From the NCBI GenBank assembly GCA_018015315.1, contig GCA_018015315.1_3629.1: DNA of 64,000 bases, one strand, 5' to 3'. Under the pieces are notes generated by a model. That model saw nothing but the letters and a program-made list of their open reading frames with translations, did no database searches and was not told the origin of the DNA. Every line of letters starts with the position of its first letter. The first letter of the stretch is position 1. The stretch comes from a phage. Shown here one piece after another: positions 2,871 to 60,747 of this stretch. The translations under genes and the position numbers were made by a program.

Positions 2871-3344
2871 TTATTCCTGCTCTTCCGGAGTCTGATCCAG
2901 GTTGTTCACCTGCTGAATCATACCCATCTGCTGTAACATCTCCAGAAGGCTTCCTAAACCGTCTTGTGTGAAAAAACAGCCGTAGTTAACCTCCAGAACC
3001 TTACCTGCCAGCTTAATCATCTCCAGCAGATGCCCCGCAAACACAACATCCGGGTTAAGCTTATCCACACCATCTACGGTAATATCTTCGAACAAGATTT
3101 TAAATAGCTCTTCAATAGAGTTATCATCAAGTTCTTGGAACAGGTAAGCCAGAGCAGTAGGAAGGACCTCTGCCATGTTCTGACCGCCTGAGATAATAGA
3201 TCCACCGATAGCACCTAGCGGGACAGCCACAATCTTACCGATTTTAGGCATGTTTTTCATTGCTTTCATCGGTCCCCAATGGGTGATCACAAAGTTGTGC
3301 CCTGCTAAATCAATCTCTGTTGTAGGTCTAAAGTTTATAGCCAT
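2871..3344 (-). CDS. putative tail assembly chaperone
   Basis: 157 aa acidic protein between tail tube and tape measure genes. Confidence 0.4.
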   Translation of the reverse strand: MAINFRPTTEIDLAGHNFVITHWGPMKAMKNMPKIGKIVAVPLGAIGGSIISGGQNMAEVLPTALAYLFQELDDNSIEELFKILFEDITVDGVDKLNPDVVFAGHLLEMIKLAGKVLEVNYGCFFTQDGLGSLLEMLQQMGMIQQVNNLDQTPEEQE

Positions 3345-18474: not shown

Positions 18475-18978
18475 AGCTGCCTCCTCTTCAAGTTATAGAA
18501 AAACTCACTGTATCACTTTGTAACGAGCTTTTCTATCAAACTGGTGCGATTGCATTACCTGGTATAGTTTATATAGCTGTGGAGCGATTTAGGGGCCTTC
18601 TTGTCAGTTTCCACACATAAACTTCATCCAAGCTCGCGCGGGAGACTCTCAACCGACTCCTTACGGCGCTGGCAAGCTTTCGTCGGTGGTCCACATCAGT
18701 GCTCGGCCTTTGGCCTGCGCTATCGCTTCGCTCCCACACATGTTAACAGACCTGCATGTATGCACTTCTGTTATTGTGTGCACCAAGGAGGCCCGGCATC
18801 TCGCCCATCGTAGGCGAGTGCCAATGAAGGGCCGACACTACCTATAGTAAGTAATAATTTTAAAACATGGTACTTAGGATCTAGTATATTCTACATAAGT
18901 TAAGTATATGTACTTAGTACCATAAGTACTAGATCTTTTATTTTTTATTATTTAGTTATTTTAGTTATATTCTTTATG

Positions 18979-19059
18979 TGTCCGTATCACGGACAGTTAG
19001 TGTCCGTATTACGGGCAGATGTGTCCGCGTGACGGACAGTAGTGTCCGTATCACGGACA
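18979..19059. repeat. four phased 17-bp palindromic sites TGTCCGT-nnn-ACGGACA
   Basis: sites at 18979-18995, 19001-19017, 19022-19038, 19043-19059; centre spacing 22/21/21 bp; flanked by AT-rich DNA. Confidence 0.8.
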
Positions 19060-19134
19060 GTTACTGACCTCTGTTCCAGAGCGAACATAAAACATACGAA
19101 TCCTTATAGTACAGATATTTAAGTTTTTACTGGT

Positions 19135-19485
19135 CTAACCAGTTGTTGACATTCGAATAACCTCTTCTGGTGGCAAAACTTTGGAAAATGTACATCTTTT
19201 ACCTCTCCCTTGTGTGGATATTTCAACCACTCCTGCACATTCTAAAGTTTTAACGCACGCTGCTGCTTTTGTTTTCTTTATCCCAACATCTGCTGCAATT
19301 TTCCTTGTGCTTGGTGTGAAGCGTGAATTTCCTCCAAGCTTATACCAGTTGTGCAGGTAGCAGTATACGATCTTGTCATATAAGTCAAGAACAACAACCT
19401 CCCCAGTTGTGTCATTCAAAACTTTTGACATAGACAGTATTTCAAGGGGGACTTTAAGATATAGCAGCTTATCCCCATCTTTCAT
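19135..19485 (-). CDS. putative winged-helix DNA-binding protein
   Basis: 116 aa; C-terminal segment resembles HTH/winged-helix; gene ends about 60 bp from palindrome array. Confidence 0.4.
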   Translation of the reverse strand: MKDGDKLLYLKVPLEILSMSKVLNDTTGEVVVLDLYDKIVYCYLHNWYKLGGNSRFTPSTRKIAADVGIKKTKAAACVKTLECAGVVEISTQGRGKRCTFSKVLPPEEVIRMSTTG

Positions 19486-56479: not shown

Positions 56480-56637
56480 AGTGCACGATTGCATACCTTG
56501 GACAGATAATCTCATTACAGAGCGTTTAAGAGCTTCCTACAAACAACTCCATATTTCGAGCGTAGCGAGAACGCACGTCCGTTTTGACCCAAATCACCAT
56601 ACGCTCGGATTTTAACCAAACCCTCGCGGCGTTTCTG

Positions 56638-56666
56638 TTGACACATTATCGCTCCAGTGATAATAT
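56638..56666 (+). promoter_or_regulatory. sigma70-like promoter
   Basis: TTGACA-17 bp-TAATAT; lies inside track ORF 56584-56997. Confidence 0.5.
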
Positions 56667-56686
56667 CCACACATCATTTGGAGAAT

Positions 56687-56788
56687 ATGGAATACACAAT
56701 GAAAACACTGTCCGAAGTTTTGGTGGTGATCCTGATGATCATTACGTCCATAGCAGCTGTTGCCGGAATACTCACGGGTGGAACATGA
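56687..56788 (+). CDS. small hydrophobic peptide (33 aa)
   Basis: ATG after GGAGA (short spacing); single TM-like segment; stop overlaps next ATG. Confidence 0.3.
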   Translation: MEYTMKTLSEVLVVILMIITSIAAVAGILTGGT

Positions 56789-56997
56789 TCAACACACATG
56801 TATCTGAAGAGACATCCGAAGGAGTTACCATATGTCCATTGGCTGAGCCAGTGAAAGAGGAAAACTTCGATTCTGATGACTCTTCATCTTCGCTCCAGGT
56901 AGACCCTGAGGCTGATGACCTGACGTGGGAAGACATCGTAGATATCTGGTTCTCTATTATGCCTGAGCACGAAGAGTTCAGGGGCGGTAGACTATGA
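56785..56997 (+). CDS. small acidic protein
   Basis: 69 aa; C-terminal part of track ORF 56584-56997, restarted downstream of promoter. Confidence 0.4.
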   Translation: MINTHVSEETSEGVTICPLAEPVKEENFDSDDSSSSLQVDPEADDLTWEDIVDIWFSIMPEHEEFRGGRL

Positions 56998-57117
56998 AGC
57001 ACCGAGCCCACACAGGTTCCTCATGCTAAAGCATGGCCTGAAGAGGCAAACGTGCATAATTCCTGTGCATTGTGACGTATAAAACCCGTTCACACTCTCA
57101 TTTCCAGAGGAGATTTC

Positions 57118-57333
57118 ATGAAGATAGAAATATTTGGTGGAGTTGACAACACTCGTGGCCTGATTTACCTTGAATTCGATGAATCATACCTGCCAGAGGT
57201 GTTAAATATAGACTCTGTTGCTGAGGCTTTGGGAGTAAACCCTAAAGAACTCCACTCTTGTGCTGAGATCGATGGTTGGGAAGAGACCATGAACATTGAT
57301 TTCAGTGAAGTAGAGGATGAACCGCTGGACTGA
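57118..57333 (+). CDS. small acidic protein
   Basis: MKIEIFGG N-terminus like other family members; last plus-strand gene before non-coding region. Confidence 0.45.
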   Translation: MKIEIFGGVDNTRGLIYLEFDESYLPEVLNIDSVAEALGVNPKELHSCAEIDGWEETMNIDFSEVEDEPLD

Positions 57334-57683
57334 CACACAATTAGCTGCCAGGCTAAAGTGCTGGAAGCACCTATAACACATCTTTCAACTAAATTTCCTA
57401 CCACCACAATCACTTACCTCCCACACATGACTGTTTGCTTGTTTAGTGAGCAGTCATGCCTTGACATTCTTGCCTATCCTGATAAAATTAAGTTCTTCTC
57501 TTTTCTTTTACCGAGTAATTCGGGTTTTCTGTTCTCTTCGGTTTGAAGGGGTATGGAGATACACCTGAGTGAACAGGGTGAACAACCGAACATTTGGCTA
57601 TGGCATTAGCATGGCGAAGCGGACGGGTGACGAAAGAGGGGCCGGAGGACACCAGTCACTGCCATATGGTATATGGGTGATAA

Positions 57684-58224
57684 CCTGAAGAGTCTGAATA
57701 AGTGTTTAAGTACCAGTCAGAGGAAAAGGTGAATGGTAGCCGAAGGGGGAGGGGGGTTTCTTGTATCTTTAATTTGTATATTATGTATACACTTGTAAAC
57801 CAATCTCATTTGAATTTGTTTACCACACAAAGTGGATAGAGACAAATATTACCTATTAAACTTGAATTATTTATAGAAAATACCACAACACTACTTAAGT
57901 CTTTGATTTTACACACAAATCCTGCAGATATTCACCCTCCATATTTAACATACTTGTAACATATTCCATACTCTACCTGCCCGATCAATTCACCCAACTA
58001 CATCCCCATATTTTCCCTGTCTGTACTACCCCTGCCCCGCCGGGAGTCCCGTCATATCTGGCTTTCCAGCAAATATCACACCCACAAATATCATTGCCTG
58101 AAGAGGGTTTCATCCCATAGTACATGCCTTACCTGAAGAGCGCTTCATATACCCCGTAAATTTTTTAATTGACACCCTCCCCGCCGCCGGAGGGGGTTGG
58201 CTTTTCCCACACAGACCTGAAGAG
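57684..58224 (+). repeat. dispersed direct repeat CCTGAAGAG (4 copies)
   Basis: exact 9-mers at 57684, 58097, 58132, 58216 in non-coding DNA. Confidence 0.7.
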
Positions 58225-58785
58225 CCAGCCAGAAATATCTGAACAGGTCCAGCTATGCCACGATTTTGTGCTTGTCCTACAGGAGTGCTTCCCTGTCAGG
58301 AGCCGGTAGCGACTGGAGTGCTGCCAGGCGGACGAAATGGGAATACTTCTCATTCTTATAACAATTCTCAAATATCGAGGCAGTGAGACAAATTAATAGG
58401 CTTTGCCGTTCACACAATGGCACAACATTTGCAGCCTATCTTGTGGGGGGTGAATGAGAATACCTATCATTGCGAGAATAGTTATCATTACGGGCAATTT
58501 AACATAATACCCATTATGCGCACCACTGGCGATATATACAGGGGTTAATAACATGGTGGACTGTTTACGCACATTACAATTGCATTACTTATTATTTGTG
58601 TGGGATATAGTTAGCCACCAACAGATTGCATAATAACCTGCAGACTTCCAGCCGTCCAGACGCCTAAGCGCCTACACAATAAGGATTATACATACACAAC
58701 TGAATGTAAACAGGGCCGCAAAAATGCTACCATACAAGATTGTAAATTTTTCATGCAGCACTTGACAAAGAGGAGAAAAACTTGT

Positions 58786-58875
58786 CTGACATACTGGTGA
58801 CATAATATGACACTTTAGACACAATAGTGACATACTGGACACGATATGACACACTGGGCATAATTGACATACCTG
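58786..58875 (+). repeat. iteron-like array of (A/T)GACA(C/T)A motifs at 10-11 bp spacing
   Basis: about 8 copies, including TGACATACTGG twice and TGACACACTGG once. Confidence 0.7.
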
Positions 58876-58983
58876 ACTGTTTACGCTGTCACTATTCACT
58901 CGCTTACATGCTTAATAGACTACATGACTAATAGTTTACATAGCTAACTGTTCACGTATAGATTGTTTACTTAAAAATGATAA

Positions 58984-59264
58984 GCCATGCCATTCGTTTG
59001 CATGATAAAGATTAGCAAGTTAATAATCTTTCACTGGCTATGCCAGGTGACCTTTTGTCACCTCTTCGGGTGTTTCTATGACATAATATAAAAGCAGGGC
59101 AACTATTAGCAGATCTATAGTTGCCTTGCTTGTTATGTCATGATTAACTAAATACAAGGCAACTATGATCTGATTAATAGATTGCAGACAAACTATCACG
59201 GGGGTGATGGTTACTGCTTTTATATTATGTCGCGACTCCGTCGCGCCATGCCATTCGTTTGCAT
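58984..59264 (+). repeat. 20-bp perfect direct repeat GCCATGCCATTCGTTTGCAT (2 copies)
   Basis: copies at 58984-59003 and 59245-59264. Confidence 0.8.
59098..59125. repeat. palindrome GGCAACTAT-10 bp-ATAGTTGCC
   Basis: 9-bp inverted repeat; further half-site copies near 59160 and 59265. Confidence 0.75.
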
Positions 59265-59880
59265 AGTTGCCTTATTGTTACAGATAAAATAATTATATTG
59301 TTAATTATTTCTTATCTTTCTCTTAGTCATCTAATGATTCCAGTCAGTATAGTAATGTACAGTAAACATTAGACGACTAAAGATTTATCTGCTTATAATA
59401 ACTTACCGTGACAATTCCGGACTGTTTACGAAAAATGTTGACACCTGAGCTGATTTATGTTATGCAATTTACACGAATAATTATTTTATGCAGGTATTGA
59501 CTATTACGTTATTCTATGGTCGGAATAAATACTTAGCGGACTATAGAATGGTGACGCTACGTGAATTCTGGAATTTAGTGGCTATAGTTATACCCGATTT
59601 TTCACGTAGAACACGCTTTTGTGGTTATGTAAGTGTATGACTTATAAAGATTTTTAGTTGTTGACAAGGCACTGAAGATATGCATCAGGTTAAATTTTGT
59701 GCAATAGCTGCATTACGTGCAATTTTGGAAGGAAAAACGTGTAAAAATGGCCCTGCTACCACACAATGAAAGATTATGCAATAGCTATTTTACATGTATA
59801 TTTGTACAGTGTGTGGGATTGATGGCTAGTCAATTATTCCACTTGCCAGGCTGGGCCGTTTGTGGTAGGAGAAATACAGA

Positions 59881-59909
59881 CAAAAAGAAAGGGGCCTTTT
59901 AAAGCCCCT
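59881..59909 (-). terminator. rho-independent terminator
   Basis: GGGGC..GCCCC hairpin followed by U-tract on minus strand; 20 bp downstream of stop of 59928-60347. Confidence 0.6.
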
Positions 59910-59927
59910 GATAGTTTAGTTAAGAAA

Positions 59928-60347
59928 TTATAATGATTCGTATATTTGATAGATTCGATTTGCCAGGTCATTACGATAGCGGAATTTTTCATCACGCTTG
60001 ATCATCAGATCTTTGAAGCCATATTCTTTAAGCACTTCATTAACTTTATAGCGGCATACCTTCATATTATCTTGCGCGTCACCGATAAACTTGTTGCTAT
60101 GATGCATGGCTTTGATCTCTTCCTCCAGGACCAGGGCAACTACGCGGACCGGATCAAGCTGATATGCGGTAACATCAATGCGGCATTGTAAACGGCTTTT
60201 AACGTCTGCCACCGGATATACTGCAACCTCTTCCCCGTCAACATTCACAATAACCAGTTTACCATCAATTTCAAAACCTTTTGCGGCTGGGCCGTGACAA
60301 AAAGCGTTATCAAAGCTGTATGCGGGATTGTTAGATTTAATATTCAT
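59928..60347 (-). CDS. hypothetical protein
   Basis: 139 aa; own promoter and terminator. Confidence 0.5.
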   Translation of the reverse strand: MNIKSNNPAYSFDNAFCHGPAAKGFEIDGKLVIVNVDGEEVAVYPVADVKSRLQCRIDVTAYQLDPVRVVALVLEEEIKAMHHSNKFIGDAQDNMKVCRYKVNEVLKEYGFKDLMIKRDEKFRYRNDLANRIYQIYESL

Positions 60348-60393
60348 GGTGTTTACCTCTTAGATAATTTTCTTACAACTTCCCTTCAAAAAG

Positions 60394-60422
60394 AATATAG
60401 CAAAACTGCCGATCCCTGTCAA
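60394..60422 (-). promoter_or_regulatory. sigma70-like promoter
   Basis: minus-strand TTGACA-17 bp-TATATT. Confidence 0.5.
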
Positions 60423-60483
60423 CAAGGGATAGCATAATTTTTGTGTGGGCAATAGGGGCCGTAGCCCCTGGTTGTATCGCCTG

Positions 60484-60747
60484 TTATTTGTTATTCATCC
60501 AGTTTTCCCAAGATGCCTGATACTCGGCCTCACTGCGGCGGATCTCTTCTTGTTCTGCAAGGCGGATCTCTTCTTCCAGGTAGCCTAAGATGTCAGCTTT
60601 TTTGGTCTGGCGTAACATCCAATCGTCCTTTTTGCGAGTAAAGATTTTATATGCTTTCTCACAAACTTCTTTTTTGCTACCTTTCTGTACTTCAAGGATA
60701 CGGTAGGCCATGTATTGAACTAATTTAAGTTGGTCGATACGTTTCAT
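60484..60747 (-). CDS. hypothetical protein
   Basis: 87 aa ORF. Confidence 0.45.
   Translation of the reverse strand: MKRIDQLKLVQYMAYRILEVQKGSKKEVCEKAYKIFTRKKDDWMLRQTKKADILGYLEEEIRLAEQEEIRRSEAEYQASWENWMNNK

Follow-up and report, generated by a model that had tools for sequence, protein, structure and literature searches.

In the phages lambda, SPP1 and P1, short repeated sequences, i. e. the R-sites of lambda cosB, the pacL and pacR boxes of SPP1 and the pac hexamers of P1, are bound by the small terminase, and both this binding and the genetic requirement for the repeats have been demonstrated. In these phages, several short repeats lie beside a unique cut, once per genome and with bent DNA nearby, and the genome ends are either cohesive or result from headful packaging. 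A different arrangement is present in T7, a podovirus with exact direct terminal repeats: Its short-repeat arrays were reportedly named SRL and SRR by Dunn and Studier in 1983, and we know of no function that has ever been established for them. In the T7 sequence, the terminal repeat has a length of 160 bp, about a dozen CCTAAAG units extend from about position 175 to 340 and start 15 nt past the repeat, and related CCTAAAG/CCTAAGG units are found on both flanks of the repeat as well as inside it. The primary description of the short-repeat arrays and of pacB was not found in the open-access literature; our comparison is based on the T7 sequence. Finally, direct repeats that all point in one direction and that are roughly in phase with the helix are also known from the lambda origin and from the iterons bound by plasmid Rep proteins, with a usual iteron unit of 17 to 22 bp. 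Here, we describe an array of even shorter units in an rV5-like phage that has features in common with each of these systems. We suggest that this array most likely belongs to the signal for genome cutting and packaging, and not to a replication origin.

A phased GACAY array in a gene-free region

The DNA studied here is a stretch of 64,000 nucleotides from a phage (contig GCA_018015315.1_3629.1), which we refer to as the window. It is derived from an rV5-like phage of the genus Vequintavirus: The segment from 58300 to 59400 matches 120 phage records with 85-93% identity, and nearly all of them are rV5-like phages of E. coli (Vequintavirus). GenBank also contains 18 records of about 135-143 kb that are designated 'UNVERIFIED Campylobacter phage' (MG065635-MG065690) and that are Vequintavirus by their sequence and taxonomy line; these are probably E. 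coli phages that were carried in Campylobacter phage stocks, or mislabelled. When IMG/VR was scanned with the repeat-end anchor, one contig was recovered, which added little diversity.

The array (array 1, see Table 1) is located in a gap of about 2.6 kb that is free of genes and that separates two convergent gene blocks. The nearest genes are about 1 kb or further away, and all downstream genes are encoded on the opposite strand. The homologous site in rV5 is a geneless stretch of 2.6 kb between gp158 on the plus strand and gp159 on the minus strand, at which two long transcription units converge. In the rV5 genome paper, this stretch is marked just as 'non-coding', and neither repeats nor termini are discussed (PMC3606486). 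A description of the GACAY array was not found in the literature that we searched.

Direct reading and a motif count both place the starts of the GACAY cores on the plus strand at 58788, 58799, 58809, 58818, 58829, 58838, 58848 and 58866, i. e. at spacings of 11, 10, 9, 11, 9, 10 and 18 nt, with the degenerate unit GGGCATAAT filling the gap of 18 nt. The mean spacing is 10.0 bp in the window and 9.86 bp if the 59 intervals from the window and the related phages are taken together. A reading of the sequence alone had proposed about eight copies of (A/T)GACA(C/T)A at distances of 10-11 bp. Eight is indeed the number of GACAY cores, but the strict 7-mer fits only six of them; likewise, the helical phasing holds, with a range of 9-11 bp. 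The exact repeats noted in that reading are present as described, the 11-mer TGACATACTGG at 58787 and 58828 and TGACACACTGG at 58847. Tandem Repeats Finder calls a double unit of 19 nt from 58799 to 58869. The GC content is 39% in array 1 and 32% in the adjacent array 2, and array 1 itself has no predicted intrinsic curvature (46th-70th percentile of the window).

The phased GACA array is real: With 110 GACAY motifs on the plus strand of the window, 0.155 are expected per 90 bp, which gives a Poisson probability of 7e-12 for at least eight, and the value is still about 1e-6 once all positions and both strands are allowed for. All six plus-strand pairs of GACAY in the window that are 9-11 bp apart are located in array 1, and the minus strand has none. 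Similarly, every 90-bp frame on the plus strand of the window with at least five cores corresponds to array 1; the minus strand reaches a maximum of four cores per 90 bp, and these belong to unrelated 21-bp repeats near 19 kb. Moreover, the complete rV5 genome (137,947 bp) contains no second chain of at least three phased GACAY cores.

In all relatives, array 2 follows directly after array 1 with one to ten TTYAC copies, and it is itself followed by the conserved block GATAAGCCATGCCATTCGTTTGCAT. Further to the right, the region from 58984 to 59264 contains a segment of 261 bp between perfect 20-bp direct repeats GCCATGCCATTCGTTTGCAT (58984-59003 and 59245-59264). The interior of this segment carries perfect inverted repeats of 18 bp (59080-59097 and 59214-59231) and four copies of the CAAGGCAACTAT type. 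The segment is missing from phage FV3 (L018), in which the 20-mer is present just once, and we therefore regard it as an indel or a small mobile element.

Table 1. Positions of the sequence features discussed in the text (window coordinates).
Feature	Position	Strand	Remarks
100 bp with the highest AT content in the window	18878-18977		19% GC
Four 21-bp repeats GTGTCCGTATCACGGACAGTA	18978-19061		each an inverted repeat
Initiator-like gene	19135-19485	-	116-aa winged-helix protein; PHROG 12838 'replication initiation protein', 2.5e-80
Left variable zone	58240-58326	+	one or two modules that end with GGAGYGCTGCC(A); here at 58282-58289 and 58315-58326
Homologue of the direct terminal repeat (458/459 bp)	58327-58786		aligned to Gotham repeat_region 1-459; single copy in the window
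Predicted intrinsic bend	58730-58795, centre at about 58762-58766		99th percentile within the window under two wedge models; weak evidence
Leftward sigma-70-like element	58739-58768	-	TTGTCA, 18 nt, TACAAT; within the final 50 bp of the repeat
Palindrome TGTC-T-GACA	58783-58791		spans the inferred right-hand repeat boundary 58786|58787
Array 1 (GACAY)	58787-58873	+	eight cores and one degenerate unit, single orientation
Array 2, unit (C)TGTTYAC / TTTACA	58874-58978	+	about 5-7 copies, 13-17 nt apart

The boundaries of the terminal repeat

The window holds one copy of the terminal repeat, and the termini of this phage therefore rest on homology. One reference is the phage Gotham, which has terminal repeats of 459 bp and in which all virions share the same start sequence (PMC7471380). 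In the Gotham record, the last 459 nt are identical to the first 459 and terminate with ...GAGAAAAACTTGTC, so that the right end of the virion DNA halts at ...CTTGTC. The repeat at positions 1-459 ends with ...AAAAACTTGTC and is then followed by TGACAT, and this transition is equivalent to 58786|58787 in the window. Several other genomes agree: For EdH4 and HdK5, terminal redundancies of 458 bp were reported by Korf et al. (PMC6563267), and the EdH4 record starts at the same base as the Gotham repeat. A search of higher sensitivity, for which the array was used together with its flanks, identified several records that start about 412 nt before window position 58740. The Pr121LW record is a collapsed circle that was opened exactly between ...CTTGTC and TGACAT.... 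Even in the sister genus Mydovirus, the boundaries are homologous: In KPP-1, twofold coverage and PhageTerm have defined a repeat of 514 bp (PMC9862379), and both ends of this repeat correspond to those in the window within about 2 nt, with GACGGAC versus GGCGGAC in the window at the start and CTTGACAAGGAGAGAGAATTGTGTT versus CTTGACAAAGAGGAGAAAAACTTGTC in the end block. The record of the Klebsiella phage DP, for which a repeat_region is annotated, starts at the repeat end that is homologous to that of KPP-1. By contrast, 'circularly permuted' genomes or headful packaging were called for Vequintaviruses by PhageTerm with default settings in two other papers. If the boundary is placed by this homology, T58787 is both the first base of array 1 and the first base outside the terminal repeat, i. 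e. the offset is 0 nt, and the array would directly adjoin the terminase cleavage site.

The junction has a symmetry of its own. The terminal repeat closes with four bases that show the array core in inverted form, and the resulting palindrome TGTC-T-GACA (TGTCTGACA) occurs only once on both strands of the 64-kb window. Moreover, the window and its 19 relatives, i. e. 20 of 20 sequences, all share the junction CTTGTC|TGACAY without any change. The left boundary of the repeat is also located within a short palindrome, GCC-A-GGC. The predicted bend directly precedes the right-hand boundary and covers the last 60 bp of the repeat. The leftward sigma-70-like element in this part of the repeat has its counterpart at 2985-3015 of one related locus (L020), and the block TTGTAAAT...CTTGACA that holds it is present in KPP-1 as well as in PVP-SE1, GAP31 and 4MG.

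Beyond its length, nothing has been reported on the terminal repeat of the Vequintavirinae in the literature that we searched. According to a column-wise conservation profile, the repeat is 80-99% identical among the relatives. Within it, a core of 30 bp (58497-58526) is 90-93% identical in PVP-SE1, GAP31 and 4MG, which belong to the genus Seunavirus; the remainder of the repeat was not detected in these three phages by blastn.

The module of the variable zone to the left of the repeat ends in GGAGYGCTGCCA, and the stretch from 58270 to 58299 in this zone has an identity of 0.28 with a gap fraction of 0.65. Still further to the left, the non-coding DNA from 57400 to 58240 is 89-100% identical across 17 relatives, mostly at 95% or above, and this exceeds the conservation of the adjacent terminal repeat. 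This block contains a strong sigma-70-like promoter (57461-57488; TTGACA, 16 nt, TAAAAT; 11 of 12 positions). The RNA fold of 57490-57775 is not significant (z = -1.31), and the block from 57400 to 58240 had no Rfam hits and was not detected in the sister genera by blastn. The 9-mer CCTGAAGAG is present in eight copies where 0.58 are expected, all of them on the plus strand (57037, 57684, 58097, 58132, 58216, 33421, 34288 and 40921), and five of the eight are found within 1.2 kb to the left of the terminal repeat.

Conservation and variation among related phages

We compared the window with 19 related Vequintavirus loci and, additionally, with Pr121LW. Array 1 is present at the identical offset in the window, in all 19 loci and in Pr121LW. 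The core motif, the orientation and the start point are conserved, whereas copy number, the order of the units and the spacers are variable. The sequence-only reading had held that repeats which are neither conserved in related phages nor bound by any phage or host protein would speak against it; it is not refuted on the side of conservation, as motif, orientation and start are kept in 19 of the 19 relatives. A perfect TGACAY forms the first unit in every case, and the distal units decay to GCACA, AACAC or TACAC. Strict GACAY copies range from two to eight per phage, and since the number is as low as two in some of them, most units are dispensable.

The units have a length of 9-11 nt and the consensus TGACAYAHTR(G). 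Among 79 units, G is present in 69, T at position -1 in 59 and T at position +7 in 67; the ACA was fixed when the units were parsed and is hence uninformative. We read these frequencies as a sign of selection on the core. The same unit types recur in differing orders in the different phages: TGACACAATA, TGACACTTT(A), TGACATACTGG, TGACATAATA/GG and AGACACAATAG. Depending on the phage, 101 to 232 bp separate the end of the repeat from the conserved block GATAAGCCATGCCATTCGTTTGCAT. Two zones rich in indels are located just outside the repeat boundaries, from 58240 to 58327 and from 58787 to 58930.

The sister genera lack the array. KPP-1 (Mydovirus) as well as PVP-SE1, GAP31 and 4MG (Seunavirus) have kept the block at the repeat end, but the GACAY array is absent and their sequences continue with TAGCAAT.... 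Thus, the array is not a general requirement for packaging in the subfamily, nor is it the sole recognition element. Judged from these genomes, it is an elaboration specific for Vequintavirus, and recognition by the terminase may instead take place inside the terminal repeat.

A candidate cleavage signal and its alternatives

The position of the array, the invariant first unit, the palindrome at the boundary and its single occurrence make the GACAY units candidate half-sites that mark the right-hand cleavage site. A link of array 1 to the genome ends, rather than to a replication origin, is very probable. More specifically, we tentatively propose that it is a cis-acting, terminus-associated and phased protein-binding site at the cleavage site of the terminal repeat. 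The site would sit where the left direct terminal repeat borders the interior of the genome, i. e. at the right edge of the single copy in the concatemer. In our model, three events can be distinguished: (i) An oligomeric DNA-binding protein, most likely the small terminase or an accessory packaging protein, would bind the GACAY half-sites head-to-tail with about one per helical turn. (ii) The boundary-proximal unit and the inverted TGTC would together form one symmetric site, TGTC-T-GACA, and a nuclease would cut at 58786|58787. (iii) The second end would be made 459 bp upstream at 58326|58327, and the terminal repeat would be regenerated by a duplication of the T7 type after these staggered cuts 459 bp apart. 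The distal units would serve as redundant loading sites, and this redundancy might explain why their number and order have drifted. A binding array for the small terminase subunit had already been one of two suggestions made from the sequence alone. The position at the end of the repeat speaks strongly in favour of this idea; on the other hand, a binder was not found among the flanking ORFs: The ten ORFs that flank the gap have no Pfam matches and provide no candidate for a binding protein, and a small terminase is not annotated in rV5.

The likeness to T7 concerns the overall design: In both cases, a short core is present in many copies and in a single orientation next to an exact terminal repeat, and a leftward host-type promoter is nearby (A0 at 224 in T7, the promoter-like element at 58768-58739 here). 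However, the motif is different and the spacing is 12-13 nt in T7 as compared to 9-11 nt here. T7 has its units on both flanks of the repeat, whereas the left flank in the rV5-like phage carries the GGAGYGCTGCCA modules and CCTGAAGAG copies rather than GACAY, and only here does the first unit combine with the repeat end into a palindrome. Moreover, the RNA polymerase of the podovirus T7 takes part in the processing of the junction, whereas the rV5-like phages are myoviruses of 136 kb with promoters of the sigma-70 type. With lambda, SPP1 and P1, the array shares several short repeats beside a unique cut, one site per genome, and nearby DNA that is bent, in our case by prediction. It differs from them in that the ends are exact direct terminal repeats, in that copy number is highly variable, and in that the array is missing from the sister genera.

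A binding array near the terminus might also have a role other than packaging, such as the protection of the end, the control of DNA entry, or a barrier that keeps duplication of the terminal repeat or gene conversion from extending past its edge. We consider this rather unlikely, even though it shares the evidence from position and conservation with the proposed packaging signal. Given its absence from the sister genera, the array is actually easier to reconcile with an accessory, genus-specific function than with a core signal for packaging, and the hypervariable zones just outside both repeat boundaries are also in line with such a function. Among host proteins, a response regulator of the OmpR/PhoB type would be a candidate for the binding protein: These regulators bind direct repeats that are 10-11 bp apart, and the minus-strand core TGTCA resembles the core of the Pho box. 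However, the spacing of 9-11 bp does not fit the fixed 11-bp register of the Pho box, and the search of the ten flanking ORFs against Pfam revealed no candidate protein for a non-packaging role. The array is located about 460 bp from the left end of the virion DNA. Finally, a palindrome exactly at the cut is better explained by an involvement in cleavage. It is tempting to speculate that the array might be a genus-specific polar barrier, i. e. that a filament on the GACAY units stops repeat duplication, branch migration or gene conversion, and we regard this specific idea as improbable. If it were true, the length of the repeat would be fixed independently of sequence recognition by the terminase, and the array would represent a kind of cis element that is undescribed for terminal-repeat phages.

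Genome ends are hot spots of recombination in terminal-repeat phages, and the array might be a by-product of slippage and unequal recombination beside the ends that has no function of its own. Among genomes that are otherwise 90-99% identical, copy number (two to eight), the order of the units and the length of the region (101-232 bp) all vary; moreover, a comparable indel-rich zone is present at the other boundary, and the sister genera do without the array. Yet the units are heterogeneous and belong to old types that recur across phages rather than being recent identical duplicates, the core and the orientation persist in all genomes, the first unit is perfect without exception, and none of the 19 relatives has lost the array. 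An origin as a mere by-product is therefore unlikely as well.

The units could also be read as a cluster of overlapping sigma-70 promoters, with TGACA as the -35 region and CATAAT or CATACT two units further on as the -10 region. Rightward transcription from the left genome end could then give rise to a short RNA or stimulate replication or packaging, as the promoters near the ends of T7 do. Three weak to moderate matches are found in the array (+58797, +58807 and +58836; 9-10 of 12 positions), hairpins resembling terminators follow about 200-350 nt downstream (59059-59072 and 59191-59212), and T7 has host and phage promoters in and beside its short-repeat array. However, the matches follow automatically from the sequence of the units, and the 16 sites found in the 3.2-kb region scanned do not significantly exceed the 10.6 +/- 3.0 that are expected. 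The genes downstream are all on the opposite strand, and the putative transcript would span the most variable DNA of the region and has no Rfam match; a permissive Rfam scan from 56500 to 60500 gave three sub-threshold chance hits, none of them in the array. We thus have considerable doubt that promoters are the reason for the existence of the array.

The second suggestion made from the sequence alone was that the repeats are initiator iterons, i. e. that the array is part of a replication origin and bound by an initiator protein of the phage. At first glance, there are arguments for this idea: The repeats are direct, in one orientation and present about once per helical turn, as in the lambda origin and in plasmid iterons. 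They are located in a long gene-free region with converging transcription, in which the authors of the rV5 genome study observed a change in skew (PMC3606486), and the 100-bp segment that ranks second in AT content within the window (59272-59371) lies about 400 bp to the right of the array. On the other hand, the units of 9-11 bp have only half the length of the usual iteron of 17-22 bp, an unwinding element adjoining the array, which itself has 39% GC, was not found, and no initiator gene was found near the array, as the flanking ORFs are devoid of Pfam domains. In addition, a more canonical candidate is located 39 kb away at 18.84-19.49 kb. There, the only initiator-like gene that we found is accompanied by 21-bp repeats of its own and by the most AT-rich DNA of the window (see Table 1). 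The winged-helix protein encoded by this gene also matches three further initiator PHROGs weakly, and its score of 24.5 bits against the Pfam family HTH_36 is just under the cut-off of 25 bits. The region from 18840 to 19485 is therefore a candidate for the replication origin. With its short units, no adjoining AT-rich element, no linked initiator gene and a better locus elsewhere, the array is very unlikely to be the origin, and the suggestion of initiator iterons is not supported. Two further possibilities were rejected: An ORF of 75 amino acids (58672-58899, minus strand) overlaps the array, but indels of 9-11 nt in the relatives preclude its conservation, and ACTGGTGA, which resembles Chi at just six of eight positions, occurs in one unit and has the wrong orientation for the protection of the nearby end.

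It is little understood how large myoviruses with short exact terminal repeats recognize and cut their concatemers. In the rV5-like phages, the ends can now be pinned to motifs, i. e. to an invariant palindrome and a phased array on the right and to a second short palindrome on the left, and the junction together with the array provides a concrete candidate for a packaging signal that can be mutated. Phages of this group are used in cocktails for phage therapy and biocontrol, and their packaging signal matters both for engineering and for the assessment of transduction. By analogy to T7, our work suggests that arrays of short repeats beside terminal repeats recur in an unrelated phage lineage.
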